Assembly (NCBI RefSeq): GCF_044792175.1
Contig: NZ_CP172866.1
Source: Corallococcus coralloides
GTDB taxonomy: Bacteria > Myxococcota > Myxococcia > Myxococcales > Myxococcaceae
Length of the DNA: 64,000 bases
Direction: 5' to 3' (one strand)
The first letter of the stretch is position 1, and each line of letters starts with the position of its first letter. Below, piece by piece: positions 4,315 through 64,000 of this stretch. The position numbers and the translations under genes are program-made. The notes beneath the pieces were generated by a model. The model was not told the origin of the DNA and did no database searches. It was given only the letters and a program-made list of their open reading frames with translations.

Positions 4315-7020
4315 ATGGCCGACACCAGCCCCCCGCGCTCCGAGCGCCGCCTGGCGCTCTTCGACGCCTCTGGCTTCATCTTCCGCGCCTATCACGCCAT
4401 CCCCCCGCTCACGACGAGCAAGGGGGTGCCCACCAACGCGGTGCTGGGCTTCACCCGCATGGTGCTCAAGGCCCTGCAGGAGCTGAAGCCCACGCACGTG
4501 GCGCTGGCGTTCGACAAGTCCGGCCGCGTGGAGCGTCAGAAGATCGACCCCACGTACAAGGCGAACCGCAAGGCGCCGCCGGAGGACCTGACGCCCCAGT
4601 TCCCGCTCATCCGCAAGGTGGGTGACGTGCTGAACCTGCCCTCGCTGGACGCGGAGGGCTGGGAGGCGGACGACGTCATCGGCACGCTGGCGATGCAGGC
4701 GAAGGCGGAGGGCTTCCAGGTCCTGGTCATCACCAGCGACAAGGACTTCATGCAGATCGTCGACGAGGACATCACCCTCTTCGACCCCGCGAAGAACAAG
4801 CGCATCGGCGTCGCGGACGTGCAGGAGAAGATGGGCATCCTGCCCGGGCAGGTGCGCGACTTCCTGGCCCTGGTGGGCGACGCGGTGGACAACGTCGCCA
4901 AGGTGCCCGGCGTGGGCGACAAGACGGCGGTGGAGCTGCTCCACCAGTTCGGCGACGTGGAGACGCTGCTCGCGCGCGTGGAGGAGGTGAAGAAGCCGAA
5001 GATCCGCGCGGCGCTGGAGTCCCACCGCGAGAGCCTGACGCGCGCCAAGCAGCTCGTCACGTTCAACACCGGGCTGGCGCTCAACGTGAAGCTGGACGAC
5101 CTGGTCCGCCGCGCGCCGGACGCCACGCGCGCCAGGGACCTGTTCACGGAGCTGGAGTTCTACGCGCTCCTGCGCGACCTGCCCGCGGAGGAGGCCCCGG
5201 CCCGGCCGGACGTGGCGCCGCTCGCCACCACCACCACGCTGGTCACCACCGAGGCGGAGCTGAAGGCGCTGGCGGACGCGGCGAAGGCGGCCGGGGCCCT
5301 CACGCTGGTGCCCGCCTTCGAGGGCATGCCCTTCGCGGCGCCCCTGGTGGGCCTGGGCGTGGCGCTGCCGGACGGCTCCACGCGCTACGTGCCGCTGCGC
5401 CACCAGCAACTGGGCGCCACCCAGGTACCGGTGGCGGCCTTCACCTCGGTGATGAAGGACGTCGTGGCGGACGCGGCGGTGAAGAAGGGCGGACACGACC
5501 TCAAGGCGCTCACGCTGGTGCTGGCCAATGAGGGGCTGACGCTGGAGGGCGCGCACGACGACGTGGAGCTCTTGAGCTACCTGCTCAACCCGTCGCGCCG
5601 GGAGCACGCGCTGGCGGACCTGGCGCGGGAGCGGCTGCGCTCGGAGCTGCCCGCGCTGCCCGCGTCGGTGGAGGGCAAGAAGGGGCGGCCGCTGGCGGAC
5701 CACGGGCCGGAGGAGGTGGCCGCGGCGTACGCGGTGCGCGCGGACGCGGCGCGCAGGCTGGCGCCGGAGCTGTGGAAGGAGCTGGAGCTGGGCGGGCTCG
5801 CGGAGCTGGCGCGCACGCTGGAGCTGCCGCTGCTGCCCGTGCTCGCGCGCATGGAGCGCGAGGGCGTGAAGCTGGACGTGGCGGAGCTGGGCCGCACGTC
5901 CGAGCGCGTGGACGTGGAGGTGAAGGCGAAGGAGGCCGAGTGCCACCAGGCCGCGGGCCACGCCTTCAACCTGGGCTCCAACCCGCAACTGGCGCAGGTG
6001 CTCTACGAGGAGCAGAAGCTGCCCATCCTCAAGCGCGGCAAGACGGGCCCGTCCACGGACCAGGAGGTGCTGGAGAAGCTGGCGGAGGAGCACCACAGCG
6101 TGCTGGCGCGCGCGTTGATCGAATACCGGGGCCTGTCCAAGCTCAAGAGCACCTACCTGGACACGCTGCCCACGCTGGTGGCGGAGGACGGGCGCATCCA
6201 CACCACGTACCACCAGGCGGCCACCGCCACCGGCCGGCTGTCCTCGTCCGACCCGAACCTCCAGAACATCCCCATCCGCACGGAGCTGGGGCGGGAGATC
6301 CGCCGCGCCTTCGTGGCGGACGCGGGGCACCAACTGGTGAGCGCGGACTACTCGCAGATTGAGCTGCGGCTGTTGGCGCACATCGCGGAGGACCCGGTGC
6401 TCATCGAGGCCTTCCGCAACGACGAGGACATCCACAGCCGCACGGCGGCGGAGATCTTCGGCGTGGACCCCAAGGACGTGGACCGCGAGCAGCGCCGCGT
6501 GGCGAAGACGGTGAACTTCGGCATCGCCTACGGCCTGTCCGCGCACGGCCTGTCCACGCGCCTGGGCATCTCCCAGGAGAACGCGCGCGACGTCATCGAG
6601 CGGTACTTCACCCGGTACGCGGGCATCCGCCAGTACCTGGAGGACACCGTGGAGAAGGCGCGCAAGGTGGGCTACGTGGAGACGCTCTACGGCCGCCGCC
6701 GCCTGATGGGGGACCTGCTCTCCAAGAACCGGGCGGTGGCCCAGGCCGCCGAGCGCGCCGCCATCAACATGCCCATCCAGGGCACCGCCGCGGACCTGAT
6801 GAAGAAGGCCATGCTGGCCGTGGACGCCGCGCTCAAGGAGCAGAAGCTGAAGACGCGCGTGCTCCTGCAGGTGCACGACGAACTGCTCTTCGAGGCGCCG
6901 GACGCGGAGGTGGAGGCCGTGAAGGCCCTGGCCGTGAAGAGCATGGCCTCCGTCGCCGAGCTGAAGGTGCCGCTCAAGGTGGAGGTGGGCGCGGGGAAGA
7001 GCTGGGCGGACGCGCACTGA
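4315..7020 (+). CDS. polA: DNA polymerase I
   Basis: 901 aa. The N-terminus has the 5'-3' exonuclease signature (LFDASGFIFRAYHA). The Klenow polymerase motifs are present: RLSSSDPNLQNIPIR, DYSQIELR, VHDELLFE. Confidence 0.95.
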   Translation: MADTSPPRSERRLALFDASGFIFRAYHAIPPLTTSKGVPTNAVLGFTRMVLKALQELKPTHVALAFDKSGRVERQKIDPTYKANRKAPPEDLTPQFPLIRKVGDVLNLPSLDAEGWEADDVIGTLAMQAKAEGFQVLVITSDKDFMQIVDEDITLFDPAKNKRIGVADVQEKMGILPGQVRDFLALVGDAVDNVAKVPGVGDKTAVELLHQFGDVETLLARVEEVKKPKIRAALESHRESLTRAKQLVTFNTGLALNVKLDDLVRRAPDATRARDLFTELEFYALLRDLPAEEAPARPDVAPLATTTTLVTTEAELKALADAAKAAGALTLVPAFEGMPFAAPLVGLGVALPDGSTRYVPLRHQQLGATQVPVAAFTSVMKDVVADAAVKKGGHDLKALTLVLANEGLTLEGAHDDVELLSYLLNPSRREHALADLARERLRSELPALPASVEGKKGRPLADHGPEEVAAAYAVRADAARRLAPELWKELELGGLAELARTLELPLLPVLARMEREGVKLDVAELGRTSERVDVEVKAKEAECHQAAGHAFNLGSNPQLAQVLYEEQKLPILKRGKTGPSTDQEVLEKLAEEHHSVLARALIEYRGLSKLKSTYLDTLPTLVAEDGRIHTTYHQAATATGRLSSSDPNLQNIPIRTELGREIRRAFVADAGHQLVSADYSQIELRLLAHIAEDPVLIEAFRNDEDIHSRTAAEIFGVDPKDVDREQRRVAKTVNFGIAYGLSAHGLSTRLGISQENARDVIERYFTRYAGIRQYLEDTVEKARKVGYVETLYGRRRLMGDLLSKNRAVAQAAERAAINMPIQGTAADLMKKAMLAVDAALKEQKLKTRVLLQVHDELLFEAPDAEVEAVKALAVKSMASVAELKVPLKVEVGAGKSWADAH

Positions 7021-7316: not shown

Positions 7317-7928
7317 TCAATGCATGGCGGACCGCTCGTCGCGGCGGCCCATGGGGGCCCGGCGCGCGTGGGACGGCCGCTCGAAGTACTCCACCACCAG
7401 ACCGCCGAACGGCACCCGGGGCCCATCCGCCTTCGGGTCCGCCATCCGCTGGAGCAGCGCCACCGCGCTGTCCACGGCCTCGTCGAGCGCGCTGTTGATG
7501 CGCTGGCGCTCCGCGTCTCCACCGCCCAGCACCTCCAGGGCGTCCACCAGGCACCGCCGCAGCAGTGCGAACTCGTCATGCAGGGCGCGCGCGCCACGCT
7601 CCGGCGCCAGGCGCAGCACCGCGCGGGTGCGGCTCCAGGGGCTGGACTCCACGCCCTCCAGCGTCAGCCCCAGCTCCCGGACGAAGGGCTCCACCAGTCC
7701 GTCCAGCAGGCTGGGGCCCGGAACGCCCTGGCCCTCGTGCGCCGCCAGCCGCATCCGCCGCCACAGGGCCGCGATGCGCTCCGGCTGCTTGCTGAAGACC
7801 CGGGCCGCCCCGGCCTTCTTCCGTCCCCGCTCCGCCGCCATGTCCGTTGTCGTCCGCATCGCGAGCAAAGACATAGCAAGGGCTTTGCCAACGCCAGACG
7901 GTTGCCGGTCCCCAGTGAAATCGCCCAC
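7317..7928 (-). CDS. Hypothetical protein
   Basis: 203-aa ORF with strong GC3 bias in this frame and no recognisable domain. It is convergent with polA. Confidence 0.45.
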   Translation of the reverse strand: MGDFTGDRQPSGVGKALAMSLLAMRTTTDMAAERGRKKAGAARVFSKQPERIAALWRRMRLAAHEGQGVPGPSLLDGLVEPFVRELGLTLEGVESSPWSRTRAVLRLAPERGARALHDEFALLRRCLVDALEVLGGGDAERQRINSALDEAVDSAVALLQRMADPKADGPRVPFGGLVVEYFERPSHARRAPMGRRDERSAMH

Positions 7929-8041
7929 TTGGGCAATGGGGCTGCCCTGAAGGGTGGCCGGAGGACGTAAATCCTACGGGGCGGGTGTTGAAAGGCGGGG
8001 GGCAGGGGAAGAACCTTCCCTGCCTGGGAACGCCGCGCCTC

Positions 8042-52076: not shown

Positions 52077-52772
52077 TCAATGCGTGTGCCGGCGGCCCTC
52101 GTCCTCCACGACGGCCGCCGCCACCTGCTCCGCCGAACCGCGCAGCTCCTCGGTGGACGGCGAGTGCCAGGACTCGAAGGCGAACAGCTTCCGCATCAGC
52201 TTCCCGGCCTGATAGCCCGGGCGCAGCCCGATGGCGTCGAACATCCAGGCCAGCGCCTCGTCCGCGAAGGTGGACCAGGCCTCCTCGCAGCCCGTGGCGT
52301 CCATGGTGAGGTTCATCGTGGTGACGATTGCATCCGCCAGGGCCAGCGTGCGGATGTCATTGTCGTCAGGGCCCGAGGGCAGGTCCCGCTTCAGCGCCTG
52401 GAAGTGGGCATCCAGCTTGAACAGCCATTCGCGCGACCGCTCCAGCGCGTCGAGGATGAGCTGGATGTTGTATTCCACGCTCATGTTCGGGGTGGGCTTC
52501 TGTCTGAAGAAGCGGTGGCACCAGCAGTAGCCGCCGAAGCTCTCATTGCCCAGAGACAGGCCCGTCTCCGTGTACCAGGGCCCCAGGTTCTGGTGGAGCA
52601 TCCGCTGGAGGTGTTTCGCCATCGTGTCGTGCTGCTCGTCCGTGAGCTTGCGCGTCCCCGGGGGCACACGCGGCGTCAGGTATTCGCGCAGCATCCGGAC
52701 GAGCTTCTCCGGCTCATACCCATCCAGGCTGTCGCGGATGCGCCGCCAGTGCCCCAGGGCCGGCCTGCTCAT
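52077..52772 (-). CDS. Hypothetical protein, paralog A (full length)
   Basis: 231 aa. It shares WRRIRDSLD.Y.P..L...LRE.L.P......L...Q......Q..L...LGPWY.E.GL.LGNE..GGYCWCH.FF.Q.P with the upstream gene. The start overlaps the upstream stop (ATGA). Confidence 0.45.
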   Translation of the reverse strand: MSRPALGHWRRIRDSLDGYEPEKLVRMLREYLTPRVPPGTRKLTDEQHDTMAKHLQRMLHQNLGPWYTETGLSLGNESFGGYCWCHRFFRQKPTPNMSVEYNIQLILDALERSREWLFKLDAHFQALKRDLPSGPDDNDIRTLALADAIVTTMNLTMDATGCEEAWSTFADEALAWMFDAIGLRPGYQAGKLMRKLFAFESWHSPSTEELRGSAEQVAAAVVEDEGRRHTH

Positions 52773-53224
52773 ACGGCCACCTCCGCCACCCGCGCCGCCG
52801 CGTCCCGGAGGGCCCTGTCGCCGGCCGCCGCCTCGAGCTGACGGCGCGAGGCCTGATACACGCCGTCCAGCGCGTACAGGAACGAACGGATCCGCTCCAG
52901 CGCGTCCAGCATGAGCTGGATGTTCTCATCCACATCCATCGTCCGGTGTGGCGGGTTCTGGTTGAAGAACGAGTGACACCAGCAATAGCCCCCCAGCACT
53001 TCATTGCCCAGGGGCAGGCCGCTCTCGAGGTACCAGGGCCCCAGCTCGGCCTGGAGCAGGTCCTGCACGGCGTTCTTCGCCTGCTTGAGCCGGCTGGCGT
53101 GGATGCTTCCGGTCCGCAAGGGAGCCAGGGCCTCCCTCAGCCGGGACGCCAGCGATTGCGGTGAGTAGGCATCCAGGCTGTCGCGGATGCGGCGCCACGT
53201 GAAGGCCGACGCGTTGTTGTTCAT
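52769..53224 (-). CDS. Hypothetical protein, paralog B (C-terminally shorter)
   Basis: 151 aa. The ATG at 53224 overlaps the Fic gene stop (ATGA). It is homologous to paralog A over its whole length. Confidence 0.45.
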   Translation of the reverse strand: MNNNASAFTWRRIRDSLDAYSPQSLASRLREALAPLRTGSIHASRLKQAKNAVQDLLQAELGPWYLESGLPLGNEVLGGYCWCHSFFNQNPPHRTMDVDENIQLMLDALERIRSFLYALDGVYQASRRQLEAAAGDRALRDAAARVAEVAV

Positions 53225-53958
53225 TCGGGCACCTCGTTGCGGCACGGGGCGTCCGGCCCCGCGATGGTCCGGGCCAGCAGCCTCGCCAGCCGCGTGTAGT
53301 TCACCGCGTCTCCCGGACGCTTGGGCCACAGCACCACGGGCGCCAGCGGCGGCGTGGGCAGCCCGCCCCGGCGCAGCATGTATTCCAGCCACAGCCGCGC
53401 CGCGCGGGCGTTGCCGTCCGGGAAGGGATGGAAGAAACACAGGTCCAGGTACAACCGCGTGGCATGTGCCACCGGGTGGCGCTCCTCCCGCGCGTCCGCC
53501 TCCACCTTGTCGCGGAAGGCGGCCTCCAGGCCGGGCCCGTGCGCGTAGCGGTGGGCGCCCCCTCGCGCGAAGGCGTCCCCGGTGCGGAAGCCCGTGGTCC
53601 CGCCCAGAAGCTCTGACTGGAGCTCCACCATCCGGGTGAAGGTCAGCGGCTCGCCCGCGTCCGCGAGCCGCCGCACCCGGGCCAGGGCCCGCTCGAAGCG
53701 CTCCGTGCGCGCCGGTCCCTGGACTTCATGGGCCGGTGCGTCATGCCGGTGCAGGAAGTCCTCCTGGGCGCCCGTCTCCCGGAAGGGCTGCCGCGCCGCC
53801 GCCGCCAGGTCCGCCCGGAGCGCGGGCAGCGCCCAGTCCAGGGCGCGCGTGGCCTCCCGGTGGGGCGCGAGCTGCTCGGTGGCGGACGGGGCCTTCACTC
53901 GGGGTCCAGGGCAAAACGGGGGGGCGGGGAGCCCAGCATGGACGGGGCCGGGTGACAA
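53221..53958 (-). CDS. Fic/DOC family protein
   Basis: Fic motif HPFPDGNARAARLW (HxFx[DE]GNxRxxR). Start uncertain. Confidence 0.6.
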   Translation of the reverse strand: MSPGPVHAGLPAPPFCPGPRVKAPSATEQLAPHREATRALDWALPALRADLAAAARQPFRETGAQEDFLHRHDAPAHEVQGPARTERFERALARVRRLADAGEPLTFTRMVELQSELLGGTTGFRTGDAFARGGAHRYAHGPGLEAAFRDKVEADAREERHPVAHATRLYLDLCFFHPFPDGNARAARLWLEYMLRRGGLPTPPLAPVVLWPKRPGDAVNYTRLARLLARTIAGPDAPCRNEVPE

Positions 53959-54056: not shown

Positions 54057-54977
54057 ATGAAGACGTTCCTCGTGGTCAACCCGCGCAGCGCCAACGGGCA
54101 GACGGGGAAGCGATGGGTGGAGATCTCCGCGCAGGTGGGCAAGGTGCTCGGTGACTTCGGGTACGGCTTCACCAGCGGCGGCATGGATGCGGCGCGTCTG
54201 GCGCGGCAGGCCATCGATGACGGTTATGAATGCATCGTCGCGGTGGGCGGCGACGGCACCCTCAACGAGGTCACCAACGGCTTCTTCCGCGACGGGCAGG
54301 TCATCAACCCCCGGGCCACGCTGGGGCTGTTGCCCCGAGGCACCGGCGGCGACTTCCGCCGCACCTTCGGGTGGGACCTGGAGCTGACGTCCGCGCTGGA
54401 GCGGCTGCGCACGGAGACGACGGAGCCCTTCGACGTGGGGCGGCTGGAGTTCACCGACAACGACGGCAAGCCGGCCTCGCGCTTCTTCGCCAATATCGCC
54501 TCGTTCGGCGTGAGCGCGGTGGTGGCCCGCGAGGTGAACCAGGGCAGCAAGGCGCTGGGCGGCCACCTGAGCTTCATGTGGGGCACCGTGAAGGGGCTGC
54601 TGAAGTACCAGGAGCAGCAGGTGCGCCTCACGGTGGACGGCGGCGAGCCGGAGACGGTGAGCGTCACCGCGGTGGCCGTGGCCAACGGCCGCTACTTCGG
54701 CAGCGGCATGTTCGTGGCGCCGGAGGCGGTGACGCACGACGGCCTCTTCGACGTCACCATCTGGTCCAACTACGGCCTGTCCGACTTCGTCCTCAAGTCC
54801 AAGGGCGTCTACAACGGCGACCACGTCACCTGGAAGGGCACGCGGCGGCTGCGCTGCCGCACGCTCCACGCGGAGGCGCTGACGGGCGACGTGTTCCTGG
54901 ACGTGGACGGCGAGACGCCGGGCCGGCTGCCCTGCACCATGACGCTCCTGCCGGGCGCCATCCGCCTCAAGGTGTAG
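54057..54977 (+). CDS. Diacylglycerol-kinase catalytic domain lipid kinase (YegS/DgkA-like)
   Basis: MKTFLVVNPRSANGQTGKRW...CIVAVGGDGTLNEV (GGDG motif), plus the C-terminal beta-sandwich. Confidence 0.8.
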   Translation: MKTFLVVNPRSANGQTGKRWVEISAQVGKVLGDFGYGFTSGGMDAARLARQAIDDGYECIVAVGGDGTLNEVTNGFFRDGQVINPRATLGLLPRGTGGDFRRTFGWDLELTSALERLRTETTEPFDVGRLEFTDNDGKPASRFFANIASFGVSAVVAREVNQGSKALGGHLSFMWGTVKGLLKYQEQQVRLTVDGGEPETVSVTAVAVANGRYFGSGMFVAPEAVTHDGLFDVTIWSNYGLSDFVLKSKGVYNGDHVTWKGTRRLRCRTLHAEALTGDVFLDVDGETPGRLPCTMTLLPGAIRLKV

Positions 54978-55857
54978 CGCCGGAGCGGGGCGCTCGCGGC
55001 GCGTCCGCCACGGGCGCGCCGACGCCGGGCGAGGCGGGCGTGGGGCGGTACCAGCTCGTCTGGCCAATCAGGTGCCGCGTGAAGCCGTCCTCCACCAGGG
55101 GCGAGGCCTCCGCGGCGCCCAGCACCAGGTAGCCGTCCGCGTGGAGCATCCGCCGCACGCGGGCGAGCACCGCGCGCCGGGTGGGCACGTCCCAGTAGAT
55201 CATCACGTTGCGCAGGAACACGAGGTCCACGGGCGCCTCCAGCGGGAAGTCGTCCATCAGGTTGAGCGGCCGGAACTCCACCGGCCTGCGCACCTGCTCG
55301 CTCAGGCGCCACCCGTCGCGCTCCTGGTGGAAGTAGCGCTGGCGCAGCTCGGGCGTCAGGCCCCGGTGGATCTCCTTCGCGTCGTAGCGGGCCTCGCTGG
55401 CCCGCACGAGCGCGCGGGTGCTGAAGTCGGTGGCGAGGATGCGCACGGTCCAGCCGGTGATGAGCAGCCCGGCCTCGGCCAGCGTCATCGCGATGCTGTA
55501 GGGCTCCTGACCGTAGGCGCACGCCGCGCACCAGACGCGCAGCGTCCGCGTGCGGACGCGCTTCGCCAGCAGGCCCGGCAGCACGGTGGCGCGCAGGGCC
55601 TCGAAGACGGGCGCGTCGCGGAAGAAGGCCGTCTCGTGGTTGGCCAGCGCCTCCGCCAGCCGCTGGTGCAACGGACTTCCCTCCGGTTGCGTGCGCAGCC
55701 GCGCGACCAGGGCGGAGAGGTCCGGCAGCCGCTCCTCGCGCATGAGGGGCGTGAGCCGCGTCTCCACCAGCGCGTACGTGTCGGGCTCCAGCACGAGCCC
55801 GGAGCGGCGCAGCACGCGCTGCCGCAGGTACGCGAAGTCGTCGGGAAGCAGGGACAT
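54967..55857 (-). CDS. cheR: Chemotaxis protein methyltransferase CheR
   Basis: The SAM-dependent MTase motifs are LRVWCAACAYGQEPYSIAM and FLRNVMIYWD. The C-terminal 296 codons of the artefactual ORF 54967..56997 are this gene. ATG at 55857. Confidence 0.85.
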   Translation of the reverse strand: MSLLPDDFAYLRQRVLRRSGLVLEPDTYALVETRLTPLMREERLPDLSALVARLRTQPEGSPLHQRLAEALANHETAFFRDAPVFEALRATVLPGLLAKRVRTRTLRVWCAACAYGQEPYSIAMTLAEAGLLITGWTVRILATDFSTRALVRASEARYDAKEIHRGLTPELRQRYFHQERDGWRLSEQVRRPVEFRPLNLMDDFPLEAPVDLVFLRNVMIYWDVPTRRAVLARVRRMLHADGYLVLGAAEASPLVEDGFTRHLIGQTSWYRPTPASPGVGAPVADAPRAPRSGATP

Positions 55858-55859
55858 GC

Positions 55860-56924
55860 TCAGGTCCTCCGTCCGCGCGCATCCACGCGCCGCGCCAGCT
55901 CCGGGGCCAGCGCCTCCAGGGGCACCACGGCATCCGCGAGCCCCGCCTGTTCCACCGCGCCCGGCATGCTGCCGGCGACGCAGCTTGCCTGGTCCTGCAC
56001 CACCACCTGTCCGCCCGCCTCGTTCACGCGCCGGCAGCCGCGCAGCCCGTCCTGGCCCATGCCGGTGAGCACCACCGCCAGCACCCCCGCGCCGTACACC
56101 TCCGCCGCGGAGCGGAAGAGCAGGTCCACCGCCGGGCGGCACGCGTTCTCCGCCGGCCCCTGGTGCGTGTGCAGCCGCACGCCCGCGGCATCCCGGCACA
56201 CGGCCAGGTGGAAGTCGCCGGGAGCGACCCACACCTCGCCCGCGTTCACGGCCGCGCCCGGCACCGCCTCGCGCACGGTGAGCGGCGTCACCCCCTGCAA
56301 CCGCTCCGCGAGCAGCCGGGTGAAGACGGGAGGCATGTGCTGCACGATGAACACCGGCACCGGCAGGTCCGCGGGCAGCGCGGACACCAGGCGCACCAGC
56401 GCGCCCGGGCCCCCGGTGGATGCGCCGACGACGATGGCCTCCACCCGAGCGGGCATCCTCGGCCGGAGCGGGAGCTCGCGCGTCACCGGTGACAGTGGAG
56501 ACGCGGCGGAGGGCGTGCGCACGTTCAGCGCCTTGAGCTTGCGCACCAGTTCGTCGCGCACGGCCTCCAGGGGGATGTTCATCCCGCCCGCGGACGTGGG
56601 CTTCGTCACGTAGTCGCGGGCCCCCAGCGCGAGCGCCTCCAGGGTCAACAGGCCCGCGCGTTCGGTGAGCGCGCTGAACATCACCACGGGCAGCTCCGGG
56701 GCGCGCTGGCGCAGGAGCTTCAGCGTCTCCAGCCCGTCCAGCTCCGGCATCTCCAGGTCCAACAGCACGACGTCGGGTTGGAACTGCTCCACCTTCGCCA
56801 GGGCGATGCGGCCATTGGGCGCGGTGGCGACGACCTCCAGGCCCGGCGCCGTGCCCAGCAGCAGCGACACCTGACGCCGCACCACGGCCGCGTCGTCCAC
56901 GACCAATACCCGGATGGCGTTCAT
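55860..56924 (-). CDS. cheB: Chemotaxis response regulator protein-glutamate methylesterase CheB
   Basis: The receiver domain (IRVLVVDDAAVVRR..VLLDLEMPELDG) is joined to the methylesterase domain (IVVGASTGGPGAL.., IVQHMPP.FT, GMGQDG). ATG at 56924. Confidence 0.85.
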   Translation of the reverse strand: MNAIRVLVVDDAAVVRRQVSLLLGTAPGLEVVATAPNGRIALAKVEQFQPDVVLLDLEMPELDGLETLKLLRQRAPELPVVMFSALTERAGLLTLEALALGARDYVTKPTSAGGMNIPLEAVRDELVRKLKALNVRTPSAASPLSPVTRELPLRPRMPARVEAIVVGASTGGPGALVRLVSALPADLPVPVFIVQHMPPVFTRLLAERLQGVTPLTVREAVPGAAVNAGEVWVAPGDFHLAVCRDAAGVRLHTHQGPAENACRPAVDLLFRSAAEVYGAGVLAVVLTGMGQDGLRGCRRVNEAGGQVVVQDQASCVAGSMPGAVEQAGLADAVVPLEALAPELARRVDARGRRT

Positions 56925-58857: not shown

Positions 58858-60960
58858 CTACTTCGTCCGCGCCTGCTTGTCGGTCGTGTCCACCTGCACG
58901 ACCAGCCGTTGCAGCGACTGCGCCATGTGGGCCAGCTCCACCGCCGAACGCTGCGTGCTGCCCGCGCCCTCGGTGGTGCTGCGCGCCGCCTCCGCCACGG
59001 CGGCCATGTTCTCGGAGATCTGCTGGCTGCCCTTGGCGGCCTCGCCCACGTTGCGCAGGATTTCTCCCGCGGTGGCCGTCTGCTCCTCCACGGAGGAGGC
59101 GATGGACGTCTGCAGCTCGTTGATGCGGCCGATGGTGGCGCCGATCTCCAGGATGGCGTTGACCACCTCCTCGGTGTCGCCCTGGATGCTGCCGATCTTC
59201 TGGCCGATGTCCTCCGTGGCGCGGGCCGTCTCGCGCGCCAACTCCTTCACCTCGTTGGCCACCACCGCGAAGCCCCGGCCCGCCTCACCGGCGCGCGCCG
59301 CCTCGATGGTCGCGTTGAGCGCCAGCAGGTTCGTCTGCTGCGCGATGGAGGTGATGACCTTGATGACCTTGCCGATCTCCTGGCTGCTCGTCCCCAGCTT
59401 GCCGACGACGCTGGACGTGGAGTCCGCGAGCTTCACCGCGGACGCGGCCACCTTGGCGGCGGTGCTCGCGTTGCGCGCCACCTCGCGGATGTTCGCGTTG
59501 ACCTCCTCCATGCCGGACGCGACGCTCTGCACGTTGCGGCTGACCTGTTCGGCGCCGGCGGACACCTGGGTGGCCTGCGCCGCGGTCTCCTGCGCGTTGC
59601 TCACCATCTGCTGGCTGACGCTGGACAGCTCCTGCGACGACGCGGCGAGCGTCTGCGAGTGCTGCGTCACCTCCTGGAAGATGCCGCGCAGGGTGGCGTC
59701 CAGCTCCTTCTCGCGCTGCTGCACCGCGAGCTTCTCCGTGATGAGCTCCCACGTCACCATGGGGCCCAGGTAGCGGCCCTGGCCGTCGTACACCGCCGTC
59801 ACCAGCAGGTCCGCGGTCTCCGGGCCAATGGGGATGTTCGCGCGCACCGGCAGGTTCTTGTCGTTGGCCAGGATCTTCCGCTGGTACGTCGAGTCGCGGT
59901 GGAAGACGTCGATGCTGGACCCCAGCACCCGGTCCGCCGTGACGGGTAGGTGCTTCTCCACGCGCTGCAACAGCCGGCGCGAGGCGGGGTTCAGGTAGAC
60001 GATCTTCAGGTCCACGTCCGCCACCATCACGCAGGTGGGCGCGTTCTCCAGCATGGCCCTGAGGCGAGCCATCTCCGTGTCCGCGCGCTGCTGGTCCGTG
60101 ATGTCCGTCCACGTCACCACGTAGCCGGTGAGCGCGCCGCCCCGGCCCTCGATGCCGTCGATGCGCGCCTTGAGCAGGGTGGGGCCCACCGCGAAGTGGG
60201 TCTCGTGCGGCAGCGACGACGGGTCGCTCAGCCGCTCCTCCTCCAGCCGCAACTGGTGCTCGAAGTGGGCGAGGAAGTCGCTGCCCCCGTCCCCCGCGCC
60301 GTCGCGGAAGGCGGCCGTCTGGCTGATGCGCTCGATGGCCTCCGACGCGGACGCGTTCGAGAAGACGATGGCCAGGTCCGCGTCCAGGACGAACAGGTTG
60401 ACCCGCGCCGCGTCCAGCACCGCCTCGCTCAGCGCCCCTTCGAGCGGCGTGGCCGTGCGGCGGCGCGAGGACCGGCCCGCGGGCGCGGACGCCACGGCGA
60501 CCCGGCGTCCCTCCGTCCGGGAGGCGCGCGCCGGAGCACGCTTCACGGCGGCGGTCCGCGAGGCGGCCTTCGCCACGGGCCTGCCCACGCCGGCATCCCG
60601 CGACGAGCCCGCGGCCGCCAGCACCTCGCGGGCGACGGGCCCCGGCACGTCCAGCTCATCCAGCACGCTGGCCAGGTGCTCGGTGACGCGCTCGAAGTGA
60701 TGGGGCTTGAGCTCCAGGCGCGCGTGCAGGTCGCGCATGGACGGGCCCTTGTAGACGGCCGTTCCGCCCAGGAACCGGGTGAGGAACGCGACCATCTGGC
60801 GCTGAATCTCGACCAGGTCCTCGCGGCGGAAGTAGGGCTTGAGCAGCGCGTCCGTCATGACCCGCGCGTAGAGCCTCTGCACGGCGGCCGTCAGGGGGGC
60901 CTTGCCGCCCAGGCGCTGGAAGGGAGTGGTTTTCACGGCGGGCGCGGTCGGGCGGGCCAT
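58858..60960 (-). CDS. Soluble chemoreceptor: N-terminal truncated hemoglobin (group I 2/2 globin) - PAS - PAS - methyl-accepting (MCP) signalling domain
   Basis: Residues ~10-125 ([33 protein letters not shown]...FLGG...[27 protein letters not shown]) align to trHbN. They carry the GG motif, B10 Tyr and proximal His. There is no TM segment. The C-terminus has the MCP highly conserved domain (...[32 protein letters not shown]...). ATG at 60960 overlaps the cheW stop. Confidence 0.8.
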
Positions 60961-61448
60961 CAGCGGGGCTCCTGGGCAAGCACGGGGAAGGAAGGGGAGG
61001 CGGGAGCGCTGGACGCGGGCGAGAGCCCGTCCACCACCGCGTCCGCGGACAACACGAGCAGCAGCCGGTCCGGCAGCGCGTGGACCCCCAGCAGCAGCGA
61101 GCGCAGCGGCCCGCGCAGGTTGTCCGGCAGCGGCGCCAGGTCCGACTGCTCGAAGGGGAGGATGTCGCCAATGGCATCCACGCGAAGGCTCACCGCGCCT
61201 TCGTCGCCGCGCAGGACGACGTGGGGCGCGTCCGCGGGGGCGGTGCCCTCGGGCAGGTCCAGGCGGCGGCGCAGGTCGATGGCGGGGACGATCTGCCCGC
61301 GCAGGTTGAGCAGCCCCGCCACCTCCGGCGGCGCGCCGGGGACGCGCGTGAGCGGCGGCGGCAGCAGGATCTCCTGCACGCGTTCGATGTCCAGGCCGAA
61401 CAGGTGCTCGCCCACCTGGAACGAGCACAGTTGCCGGAGGCCGCTCAT
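60960..61448 (-). CDS. cheW: Chemotaxis coupling protein CheW
   Basis: 162 aa with the CheW-like domain ([19 protein letters not shown]...[15 protein letters not shown]). ATG at 61448 overlaps the cheA stop (ATGA). Confidence 0.8.
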
Positions 61449-63583
61449 GGCGCACCGCCGGTCAGCAGCTCCGGGTGCACGGCGCGCACGGTGCCCTCCA
61501 CGTCCAGGAACTCGGTGGCCCGGGCCTGCACCACCATGGAGCCCAGCACGCCCGGACGGCGCGTCTCCCGCTGGAGCGCGAGCTCCACCTCCGCGACGTC
61601 GAGGATGGCGTCCACCACCAGCCCCACGCGCGCGTCCGCGTGCTGGGTGACGACGACGGACAGCGACTCGCCCGGGGCGGCCTGGAGCTGCCGTGCCATC
61701 CGCTCCGTCGCGCCGGGCGTCGCCTCCAGCACGGACGCCACGCGCACCAGCGGCAGCAGTTGCCCGTGGTAGCGCGCCATCTCCATGCCGCCGCTCAGCC
61801 GCTCCACGTCCGAGGCGGGCAGCTCCTCCAGCCGGGCCACGCGCGACAGGGGAATCGCCACCCGGCCCTCCGCGCCATGGCGGCACAGCAGCACCCGCTC
61901 GCGCGTCTCCTCCGGCGCCGGTGCCTCCACGGCGGCCTCCGGGATGACGACCTGGGCCTGGGCCTCGTTGACGGTGCCCACGCGGCGGCCCAGGCCCATG
62001 GCGTCCAGGATGAGCGCCACGCGCCCGTCGCCCAGCACCGTCGCGCCCGCGTAGCAGGCCAGCCCCTTCAGGTGCTTCCACAGCGGCTTGACGACGATCT
62101 CCTCCGTGTCGTGGATGGCGTCCACCCACAGCCCGAAGGCGCACTCGCCCGCCTGGAGCACGACGACGGTGGCGCCCTCGTCCAGGTCCGGCATCGCCGG
62201 CCCCACGCCCAGCTCGGCGGCGAGCACCCCCAGCGGCAGCAGCTCCCCGCGCAGCCGCAGCACGCAAGCGCCCTGGAGGCGGGTGATGTCCCTGCGCGCC
62301 TGGGCCGGCTCCAGGAACACCACCTCTCGCAGGGAGGCCTGCGGAAGCGCGTAGCGGTCTCCCCGGCAGGTGACGAGCAGCGCCGGGATGATGGCCAGCG
62401 TGAGGGGAATCTTCAGGGTGAACGTGGTGCCCTGACCGGGCCGGCTGTGCACCTCCACGGTGCCGCCAATGCGCTCCACCTGCGTGCGCACCACGTCCAT
62501 GCCCACGCCCCGGCCGGACAAGGACGTGACGCGCTCCGCGGTGCTGAAGCCCGGCATGAAGATGAGCATCAGCGCGTCCGCGTCCGGCAGCCGCGCCGCC
62601 TGGTCGGCCGTGAGCAGGCCCCGCTGCACCGCGACCTGCCGCACGCGCTGCACGTCGATGCCCGCGCCGTCATCGGACATGCCCAGGTGCACGAGCCCGC
62701 CCTCGTGCGACGCGCTCAGCGTCAGGCACCCCACGGGCGGCTTGCCGGCGGCGCGGCGCTGCTCGGGCGTCTCCACGCCGTGGTCCACGGCGTTGCGCAG
62801 CAGGTGGGTGAGCGGATCATGCAGCGCCTCCACCAGCGTCTTGTCCAGCTCCGTGTCCGCGCCCTGCAGTTGCAGCCGCACCTGCTTGCCGCACCCGTGC
62901 GCCAGCTCGCGCACCAGCCGGGGGAAGCGGTTCCACACCTGCCCCACCGGCTGGAGCCGCGTCTTCATCACCACCTGCTGCACCTGCGTGGTGACGACGT
63001 CCAGCCGCTGCGACGCGGTCGTCAGGTCCGCGCCCGGCGTGGGCGAGGCCGCGCACTGGAGGATGCGGTTGCGCGCCAGCACCAGCTCGCCCATCAGGTT
63101 CATCAACCGGTCCAGCAGCGCCACGTCCACGCGCAGCTTGGAGTCCACCCCGGTCGCGGCGCCGCGCCAGGGCAGGGCGCCCGGAGGCGCCAGGGGCTCG
63201 GACACCTCCAGCGGCGCGGAGCCCGCCGCCGCGCCCGCCATGCGCGCGAGCAGCGCGGAGTGGTCCACCGCGGGCTCCAGCCCCGTCGCCTCGATGTGCT
63301 CCAGCGCCCCGCGCGCCGCGTCCGCCAGCGCCAGCAGCGTGGACACGCGCTCGCGGTCCAGCACCAGGCGCCGGTCGCGCGCCAGCCCGAGCATCTCCTC
63401 GGCGGCGTGCATCAGCGCCTCCAGGCGGCTGAAGCCCAGGAAGCCGCAGGTGCCCTTCACCGTGTGCAGGGCCCGGAACAACTGCGCCAGCAACGGCTGC
63501 GAGCCCGGCTGCGCCTCCAGCTCCAGCACCGTCGCCTCGATGGCCTGCACGTGCTCGCGGGACTCCAGGAGGAACTCCCGCAT
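61445..63583 (-). CDS. cheA: Chemotaxis histidine kinase CheA (two C-terminal CheW-like domains)
   Basis: Hpt domain with HTVKG, dimerisation domain, HATPase (N/G1/F/G2 boxes: [24 protein letters not shown]), and two CheW-like domains. ATG at 63583. Confidence 0.85.
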
Positions 63584-63788: not shown

Positions 63789-64000
63789 TTAGAAGAACAG
63801 GCGAAGCAGGTCGTACCGGGTCTCCGCGCCCAGCTTCCGGAGCAGGTTGGCCTGGTGGAACTTCACCGTGCGCTCGGTAATCCCTAGCACCGTCGAAATG
63901 TCGGTGGGCGAGCGGCCGAGCGCGAGATATCGCAAGACATCTCCCTCCCGCTCGGACAGCCGCGCGGCGTTCGCCATGCGCCGCACCTTCGCCTCGAAGA
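63789..64000 (-). CDS. LuxR/FixJ-type HTH regulator, 5'-partial (N-terminus beyond window end)
   Basis: LSEREGDVLRYLALGRSPTDISTVLGITERTVKFHQANLLRKLG is a LuxR HTH. The frame stays open to position 64000. It is the likely response regulator of this che operon. Confidence 0.55.
   Translation of the reverse strand, partial: FEAKVRRMANAARLSEREGDVLRYLALGRSPTDISTVLGITERTVKFHQANLLRKLGAETRYDLLRLFF

Follow-up and report, generated by a model that had tools for sequence, protein, structure and literature searches.

Which domain of a chemoreceptor senses gas when the protein carries both a truncated hemoglobin (trHb) and PAS domains of a heme-binding type, and how could either reach the chemosensory array? 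This question is raised by a 64,000-nucleotide stretch of Corallococcus coralloides DNA (contig NZ_CP172866.1, assembly GCF_044792175.1; hereafter the window), wherein the gene mcp, running on the minus strand from an ATG at position 60960 to a stop codon at 58858, encodes a soluble receptor of 700 residues. Its domains are, in order, a trHb, a linker, two PAS domains (PAS1 and PAS2), and the kinase-control hairpin of a methyl-accepting chemotaxis protein (MCP). A first-pass annotation, made from the letters of the sequence, had presented this protein as a new type of sensor, in which a 2-on-2 globin is wired to a chemosensory array in place of the 3-on-3 sensor globin of HemAT. The analysis described herein upholds the identity of the globin, but points to an Aer2-type heme-PAS domain as the likely primary sensor, a domain overlooked by that annotation and by the 2018 paper on an orthologous receptor alike (Sharma, Parales and Singer, BMC Genomics 2018; PMC6194562).

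Sequence and model comparisons confirm that the N-terminal domain is a true 2-on-2 globin of group I (trHbN-type), in which the set of heme-pocket residues is intact. The Pfam profile Bac_globin (PF01152), with which the first-pass annotation had proposed to check the N-terminus, matches residues 14-106 at E 4.2e-14 (53.2 bits against a gathering cutoff of 21), and MCPsignal (PF00015) matches residues 497-658 at E 1.2e-32; together with a fold that matches truncated hemoglobins, these results bear out the proposed fusion of a 2-on-2 globin to a soluble MCP. No transmembrane segment was found in the receptor, the highest 19-residue Kyte-Doolittle mean being 1.47, as the annotation had also stated. 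When the globin was compared with Protein Data Bank (PDB) chains by phmmer, group-I trHbs scored best, at 1e-17 to 1e-11 (about 5e-11 for the lowest-ranked chains), with Chlamydomonas THB1 at 1e-17, Tetrahymena trHbN at 1e-16, and Mycobacterium tuberculosis HbN at 4e-12; group-II trHbs matched more weakly, at 1e-9 to 1e-4, and no group-III chains were among the matches. An AlphaFold2 model of the domain, built on 28 family sequences, has a predicted local distance difference test (pLDDT) score of 83 and helices at residues 20-34, 49-63, 75-82, 86-102, and 107-121. In a Foldseek search of the PDB with this model, M. tuberculosis HbN (1idr) ranked first, with a TM-score of 0.80 and a root-mean-square deviation of 1.9 Å; the top 27 matches were all group-I trHbs, all 50 listed matches were truncated hemoglobins, and no 3-on-3 globin occurred among those 50. 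Likewise, no Protoglobin or sensor-globin match was returned by Pfam for the receptor, and the distinction drawn earlier between this 2-on-2 globin and the 3-on-3 sensor globin of HemAT thus holds.

At the residue level, the motifs pointed out beforehand were all located: G18-G19 (RLGGK), Y31 at B10 (LYARV), G65-G66 (FLGG), the proximal H79 at F8 (DLHARL), and H87-H88-F89. Further pocket positions are F44 (CD1), I52 (E7), Q55 (E10), and M56 (E11). The domain was aligned with 41 globin domains from relatives and with Tetrahymena trHbN, THB1, and HbN, the sequence of the last agreeing with its published residue numbering. The HbN residues H81, Y33, and F46 correspond to H79, Y31, and F44, which do not vary among the 41 domains; G18, G19, and G65 are likewise invariant, and G66 is at least 90% conserved. 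As G18, G19, Y31, F44, and H79 are invariant in an alignment of 28 globin domains whose identity outside the genus is only 28-38%, the motifs are no chance matches and the heme pocket is under selection; heme and diatomic-ligand binding is predicted from these residues. Position G8 is Val rather than Trp, and this, along with the higher scores of group-I over group-II PDB chains, is the basis of the group-I assignment; a polar distal Gln at E11 or E7, which is typical of the group without strictly defining it, is absent here (Ile52 and Met56). The globin therefore resembles the known group-I trHbs (HbN, the Tetrahymena and Paramecium trHbNs, and Chlamydomonas THB1) in fold (TM-scores of 0.74-0.81), in both Gly-Gly motifs, in Tyr-B10, Phe-CD1, His-F8, and Val-G8, and in the Leu or Ile that occupies E7 across the family as in HbN. 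It departs from them in being one domain of a 700-residue signalling protein instead of a stand-alone globin, and from HbN and most family members in the residue at E11, which is Met in 18 of 19 Corallococcus sequences but Gln in HbN and in 15 of 22 members from outside the genus.

An intact globin is not, however, the only candidate for gas sensing in this protein. The two PAS-like segments that had been placed between globin and MCP are indeed two PAS domains, but rather than passive linkers they are homologs of the heme-PAS domains of Aer2. Pfam recognizes a PAS match at residues 299-333, and the NCBIfam Aer2 model built for Vibrio (NF041847) matches residues 180-417, that is, only the two PAS domains, at E 1e-56, with a score of 192 bits that lies below the equivalog cutoff of 1200. 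With residues 297-415 as query, PAS2 finds in the PDB the heme-PAS structures of Pseudomonas aeruginosa Aer2 (PaAer2; 3vol at 3.8e-15 and 4hi4 at 7.5e-14) and the second PAS domain of Vibrio cholerae Aer2 (VcAer2; 6ceq at 5.4e-12). Aer2 receptors are defined by an E-eta His that ligates the heme, an I-beta Trp that bonds O2, and an H-beta Leu in the ligand cleft; they further have a C-terminal DxT coupling motif and a core made up of the last PAS domain, a di-HAMP, and a 36H hairpin (PMC10107281). When 279 PAS domains taken from 120 homologs were aligned with those of PaAer2 and VcAer2, H354 of PAS2 fell in line with the E-eta His of PaAer2, H234, and L385 and W404 took the H-beta Leu and I-beta Trp positions; of the family's 121 C-terminal PAS domains, 119-121 keep each of the three. 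The DxT motif, by comparison, reads L406-I407-T408 in PAS2, where the Thr alone is kept, and its Asp is replaced by Leu in 107 of the 121 last PAS domains. Since PAS2 retains the heme-ligand His, the cleft Leu, and the O2-bonding Trp, the globin cannot be taken as the sole candidate gas sensor, as the first-pass annotation had done, and it is probably not the primary one.

PAS1 is a degenerate copy of the same type (1e-5 against PAS2 by phmmer) and is probably heme-free, having Glu234 in the column of the heme-ligand His and Ala in that of the H-beta Leu, while W284 and D286-I287-T288 are kept. The first PAS domain reads IHRFHK outside Corallococcus but FLAHFEHQ or FLSRFEQQ inside it, and the loss of the ligand His is thus a feature of the genus. 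Heme binding through His232 or His235, which flank the ligand column, was also considered and is unlikely as a conserved property, as neither residue is conserved within the genus.

The manner in which these domains are joined bears on which of them could drive the hairpin. In the full-length AlphaFold2 model, wherein the globin is again predicted with confidence, PAS1 spans residues 176-286, a connecting helix residues 288-305, and PAS2 residues 306-406; residues 408-522 then form one unbroken helix, which continues from the last strand of PAS2 straight into the hairpin, whose tip lies at residues 559-562 and whose return arm extends to residue 692. No HAMP domain was found between PAS2 and the hairpin by Pfam or in the model; many relatives have about 60 extra residues at this PAS-hairpin junction, with a Pfam HAMP in some. 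The globin, on the other hand, is separated from PAS1 by a linker that is predicted to be disordered (pLDDT 29-37 over residues 122-170) and varies in length and sequence, with 44-84% identity and indels inside the genus and 5-23% identity outside it. HemAT and the other globin-coupled sensors are similar in placing a heme globin N-terminal to a soluble MCP, with presumed gas sensing into the Che pathway, but HemAT connects the two by a continuous helix, whereas the present receptor interposes the predicted-disordered segment and two PAS domains. The linker of some 50 residues thus argues against the HemAT-like wiring of the globin that the first-pass annotation had implied. Conservation within the genus follows the same division: identity to the window receptor is 95-99% in the kinase-control module (KCM), 90-96% in PAS2, 70-85% in the globin, 61-91% in PAS1, and lowest in the linker, a ranking that makes the PAS2-KCM core the most constrained part of the receptor.

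The KCM has the conserved MCP tip and putative adaptation sites. Its tip, at E559, reads RAGEAGRGF (residues 556-564); a heptad-spaced ladder of Gln/Glu pairs occupies residues 443-486, and one strict Glu-Glu-x-x-Ala-Thr methylation site (EEQTAT, residues 625-630, with the pair E625-E626) lies on the return arm, while no C-terminal pentapeptide was found in the receptor. The receptor aligns end to end with residues 267-512 of Tsr, although the gap placement of the HMMER pairwise alignments is inconsistent, and the tip lies 67 residues from the (D/E)EQ motif, as compared with 74 in Tsr (36H) and 88 in TM1143. For these two reasons, the KCM is at most a candidate for the 36H class.

Taken as a whole, the receptor is akin to the Aer2 proteins of P. 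aeruginosa, V. cholerae, and V. vulnificus in being a cytoplasmic MCP with PAS domains homologous to solved PAS-heme domains, in the E-eta His, H-beta Leu, and I-beta Trp of PAS2, and in having multiple tandem PAS domains behind an N-terminal region of variable composition. It differs from them in lacking a di-HAMP and a C-terminal pentapeptide, in having L-I-T for DxT in PAS2 and no heme ligand in PAS1, in its additional N-terminal trHb, and in scoring 192 against the NCBIfam Aer2 cutoff of 1200.

Relatives of the receptor supply natural variants of nearly every part of this architecture. Among the 120 best homologs, 40 carry a globin, and the others have the same core of two to four PAS domains and hairpin without one, at about 50% identity; at that level of identity, the core occurs with no globin (e.g., P0055 of Hyalangium), with one, or with two in tandem, as in the 1171-residue P0018, wherein two trHbs are followed by four PAS domains and an MCP. 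The named genomes with the globin form include Corallococcus and metagenome-assembled genomes (MAGs) of Moraxellaceae, Gemmataceae, and Terriglobia, and a globin-less version sits in a cheY-cheA-cheW-mcp-cheY-cheB-cheR cluster of Hyalangium rubrum. In a Nitrospinaceae MAG (JAJDAZ010000064; L011, 5878-8303), the globin comes after the receptor: an MCP with three PAS domains ends in a Gly/Ser/Lys tail (GGGKKKV*) just past a run of nine A (7925-7933), and a trHb lacking its own start codon follows in the +1 frame, such that one extra A in the run would yield an in-frame fusion. This globin may accordingly be either a C-terminal fusion obscured by an assembly indel or a separate or split adjacent gene.

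Homologs of the globin domain alone were not recovered by a word-indexed database search, whereas a profile search with the globin alignment returned 10,597 matches at E ≤ 1e-3; the top of this list is dominated by multi-unit trHbs, whose scores sum over repeats, and it gives no clean count of trHb-MCP fusions. These multi-unit proteins (P0121-P0136) are very long, with up to 14 globin units in 1882 residues. Ten long matches with a single globin were scanned with Pfam, in line with the survey of such fusions that had been suggested, and seven were MCPs, with the architectures trHb-PAS-MCP, trHb-MCP, trHb-HAMP-GAF-MCP, and trHb-GAF-MCP; the remaining three were a trHb-PAS protein without MCP, a trHb-E1-dehydrogenase fusion, and a CheA fragment (P0265, a metagenome representative of 578 residues) in which the trHb separates HATPase_c from the CheW-like domain, so that trHbs occur in chemosensory proteins of a second kind. 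The variety of architectures in these ten marks the globin as a mobile module that has been attached repeatedly to chemosensory proteins.

Within Corallococcus itself, two independent records of the C. sicarius lineage (P0020 and P0029) share an exact in-frame deletion of 120 residues (residues 287-406 of the window receptor) that takes out PAS2, while globin, hairpin, and the PAS1 without its His are all still there. Their sequences indicate that PAS2 was lost by recombination between the two PAS repeats, and the event is recent, as the variant is nearly identical to the intact relative P0017. A 404-residue record, P0023 ('MULTISPECIES Corallococcus'), starts at Met297 and thus comprises PAS2 and the hairpin without globin or PAS1, a short form that could stem from a disrupted 5' part of the gene or from the start-site call. 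To our knowledge, experiments have yet to demonstrate a truncated hemoglobin that works as a signal-transducing sensor. For this reason, and because the relatives with no globin, two globins, or the globin after the receptor, as well as the heme-PAS deletion variant of Corallococcus, constitute natural controls suited to the purpose, this receptor family is in our view of interest as a clean place to test trHb signalling.

With a probability of about 0.6, and by analogy with Aer2, we favor a mechanism in which heme-bound PAS2 would be the primary driver of signalling and the globin a second, modulating heme input. O2, or possibly NO or CO, would bind the PAS2 heme and set off the Leu-out, Trp-rotation switch known from Aer2; the switch would pass directly down the helix and thereby modulate CheA in a cytoplasmic array, and CheR and CheB would adapt the receptor at its Glu/Gln pairs. 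The globin would tune or gate PAS2 signalling by tether-enabled contacts at the PAS end of the hairpin, a role analogous to that of the modulating and dispensable upstream heme domains of VcAer2 and VvAer2 (PMC10107281), and would not serve as a helix-coupled primary sensor of the HemAT kind. Both termini of the hairpin lie at its PAS end, so that a globin joined at either end of the receptor would sit beside the PAS domains, which fits modulation by docking. As judged from the sequences and models, the globin is an add-on held by a flexible tether: some relatives have it, others lack it, and in others again it is doubled or comes after the receptor. As the organism moves by gliding and the cluster has no cheY, the output would be something other than classical flagellar chemotaxis, with the product of the downstream ABC1 kinase gene as a candidate partner.

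Several points count against this mechanism. PAS2 is cast as the driver by analogy, and because PAS2 lacks the Asp of DxT and the receptor has no di-HAMP, the transmission route of Aer2 is not conserved. The PAS2-deletion variant (P0020 and P0029), if functional, would mean that heme sensing can be left to the globin alone; the invariant pocket residues show that the globin is under selection and no mere passenger; and the trHbs on PAS-less MCPs (trHb-MCP and trHb-GAF-MCP) suggest that such a globin can provide an input by itself. In this particular protein, moreover, PAS1 may bind heme by virtue of the His232 and His235 that flank its ligand column. The first-pass annotation took a rival view, that of a '2-on-2 HemAT' whose globin would be the principal gas sensor, relayed to the hairpin through PAS1 and PAS2 mainly as transmission or dimerization modules. 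Such a receptor would account for heme-pocket residues that are invariant across distant homologs, for trHbs on MCPs without any PAS and even within a CheA fragment, for a natural variant whose lone domain with an intact heme ligand is the globin, and for the loss of the heme ligand from the PAS1 of Corallococcus, as if sensing had moved elsewhere. It is nevertheless unlikely, given that the low-confidence linker of about 50 residues varies in length and sequence and so provides no rigid path of transmission, that PAS2 keeps every heme and O2 residue of Aer2 and is more conserved than the globin, and that globin-less homologs keep the same core; the deletion variant, being nearly identical to P0017, is young and its functionality putative.

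Two further roles for the globin would leave it outside the signalling path altogether. M. tuberculosis HbN is an NO dioxygenase, and a tethered enzyme or ligand buffer of this kind (e.g., an HbN-like NO dioxygenase or a high-affinity O2 trap) might protect or condition the PAS2 heme within the array without contributing a signal. HbN is the best structural match of the domain, members from outside Corallococcus have an HbN-like distal site of Tyr-B10, Leu-E7, and Gln-E11, an enzyme that acts by proximity would be well served by a tether that is flexible and by a position that varies between the N-terminus and the far side of the receptor, and the operon includes an ABM-fold protein with weak similarity to MhuD. 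This role is less probable still, however, because Gln-E11 has been exchanged for Met in 18 of 19 Corallococcus sequences, no reductase partner for the globin is evident from the Pfam matches of the cluster genes, and the repeated recruitment of trHbs to chemosensory proteins (seven MCPs among the ten long relatives with a single globin) is more in keeping with sensing than with detoxification. That the globin is vestigial and without heme, with all sensing done by PAS2, is very improbable: within the genus, the globin does evolve more quickly than either PAS2 or the KCM, and some annotated Corallococcus records, such as P0023, begin at Met297 without globin and PAS1, but homologs at 28-38% identity all share both Gly-Gly motifs, Tyr-B10, Phe-CD1, and the proximal His, and the 2-on-2 model is confident.

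A bolder proposal, which we advance tentatively, is that trHbs are a genuine and recurrent sensory input of chemosensory arrays, a 'truncated-globin-coupled sensor' class. In place of a rigid helix, such sensors would use heme modules on flexible tethers, or even encoded separately, whose docking on the hairpin, at its PAS end, would depend on the ligand they carry. In Corallococcus, the Met-E11 globin and heme-PAS2 would then constitute a two-heme discriminator (e.g., of O2 from NO), with output to a co-evolving ABC1/UbiB-type kinase rather than to CheY. If true, this would link gas sensing to quinone or lipid metabolism.

The receptor is not new, and the main value of the present analysis is corrective: an ortholog is already known, in silico only. 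Cc_4972 (WP_014397685.1) of C. coralloides DSM 2259 was described as a cytosolic protein with Bac_globin, PAS, and MCPsignal, encoded in a cluster without cheY (Cc-5/ECSS4) that was proposed to be an aerotaxis or energy-taxis system and was found in 1 of 34 myxobacterial genomes (Sharma et al., 2018; PMC6194562); a 2026 review of aerotaxis still cites it as an in-silico prediction. The window receptor, whose host is a sister Corallococcus, has the same architecture and gene order and is 92% identical to WP_014397685.1 over all 700 residues without gaps; its nearest database record, from Corallococcus sp. AS-1-12, falls in the same 90% cluster as WP_014397685.1. With the protein and cluster published in 2018 and the architecture widespread in metagenomes, the claim of a new sensor type does not stand. 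The paper worked at the Pfam level, and the words 'truncated' and 'Aer2' do not occur in it; what the present analysis adds is that the globin belongs to group I, that PAS2 is an Aer2-type heme-PAS and PAS1 a degenerate one, and that a HAMP is missing, and the cluster is now seen across the genus Corallococcus. No other description of a trHb-MCP was found in the literature searched, a search that left subscription-journal globin censuses aside. In a globin review of 2020, the only bacterial T globins entered as chimeric belong to subfamilies T2 and T3, so that a T1 chimera such as this one is outside that census, and the globin field may be unaware of T1 fusions.

A comparison of genomic context also changes the picture of the ABC1 kinase, which the 2018 paper held to be absent from related clusters and inferred to be a later addition (Sharma et al., 2018). 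A metagenome locus (L001) that is distant from Corallococcus has the order cheA-cheW-(120 aa)-trHb-PAS-PAS-MCP-ABC1-cheB-cheR-HDOD-cheY-cheX, and contradicts that inference. Its MCP is 43% identical to the window receptor, and its ABC1 protein (5442-6971) is 43% identical end to end to that of the window and exactly 509 residues long in both; as kinase and trHb-MCP share the same identity at this distant locus, ABC1 was, on these sequences, inherited with the receptor and is an old partner rather than a late arrival. In the planctomycete-like loci of P0063 and P0024 (JGI 3300047160), cheA-cheW-trHbMCP-cheY-cheB-cheR-cheX is followed by a receiver-Ser/Thr-kinase fusion, which may represent a non-flagellar output.

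The gene and domain coordinates are collected in Table 1. The seven genes from cheA to cheR follow closely on one another along the minus strand, neighbors either overlapping or lying no more than 34 nucleotides apart; cheA and cheW overlap by 4, and the ABC1 gene lies 34 nucleotides downstream of mcp. Pfam confirms the neighbors that had been assigned to mcp, cheW on one side and the ABC1 kinase gene on the other, but the description of the operon as complete must be withdrawn, as no cheY was found in the cluster and the receiver domain of CheB is the only one detectable in the 64-kb window. The order CheA-CheW-MCP-ABC1, then ABM-CheB-CheR, without cheY is the same in three other Corallococcus genomes (L003-L005), the comparison having been taken from the relative P0003. 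The start of mcp is placed at 60960 because its ATG overlaps the cheW stop codon (TGATG), an AGGAG lies 8 nucleotides upstream, and the N-terminus of the 700-residue receptor is identical in all orthologs; an 865-residue open reading frame (ORF) is a spurious upstream extension that runs into cheW.

Table 1. Features of the receptor gene, its product, and the surrounding cluster, with window positions, strand, and basis of assignment.
Feature	Position	Strand	Basis
mcp, soluble chemoreceptor, 700 aa	58858..60960	-	Translation, Pfam, ortholog of C. coralloides Cc_4972
Group-I truncated hemoglobin domain, aa 12-121	60598..60927	-	PF01152, PDB phmmer, AlphaFold2, Foldseek, residue conservation
Ala/Arg/Ser-rich linker, aa 122-174, ~50 aa	60439..60597	-	AlphaFold2 pLDDT, composition, identity
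PAS1, degenerate Aer2-type PAS, aa 175-290	60091..60438	-	PAS alignment, AlphaFold2 fold, phmmer
PAS2, Aer2-type heme-PAS, aa 297-410	59731..60072	-	PDB matches, residue conservation, within-genus identity
Kinase-control module, aa 411-692	58885..59730	-	MCPsignal, AlphaFold2 secondary structure, PDB alignments to Tsr and TM1143, motif scan
PAS + LuxR/GerE-HTH regulator, 3' end	63789..64000	-	Six-frame translation; N-terminus beyond the window
cheA	61445..63583	-	Pfam: Hpt, dimerization, HATPase_c, CheW-like; no receiver domain; upstream GTG start possible
cheW	60960..61448	-	Pfam CheW 1e-29; stop overlaps mcp start codon
ABC1/UbiB-type atypical kinase, 509 aa	57294..58823	-	Pfam ABC1 1e-47
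ABM-fold (antibiotic-biosynthesis-monooxygenase-like) protein, 111 aa	56936..57271	-	Pfam ABM 1.6e-14
cheB (receiver + methylesterase)	55860..56924	-	Pfam
cheR methyltransferase	54967..55857	-	Pfam

The gene directly upstream of cheA, on the same strand, was considered as the missing response regulator and set aside, since its product is a one-component regulator of the PAS+GerE type that has no receiver domain; the cluster could thereby have another PAS sensor linked to it, and the syntenic gene in a sister genome encodes 307 residues (L003, 6249-7172). The ABM-fold protein has weak PDB matches (E of about 2e-4) to the heme-degrading proteins MhuD and HmoB, and a heme-related role beside a two-heme receptor is possible; the Asn/Trp/His triad of IsdG and MhuD is not claimed for it, as only the Trp can be aligned clearly, the columns for Asn and His being uncertain by an indel or a single residue. 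At the far end of the cluster, a diacylglycerol-kinase-like gene (54057-54977, plus strand) converges on cheR, and the 3' ends of the two share 11 nucleotides, at 54967-54977. Farther downstream on the minus strand, two adjacent paralogous ORFs (52077-52772 and 52769-53440) lie downstream of a Fic gene and share the motifs WRRIRDSLD, LGPWY..GL.LGNE..GGYCWCH, and NIQL.LDALER; the ORF at 52077-52772 has no Pfam match, and the position of the pair is conserved in the sister genome (L003, 17733-19090).

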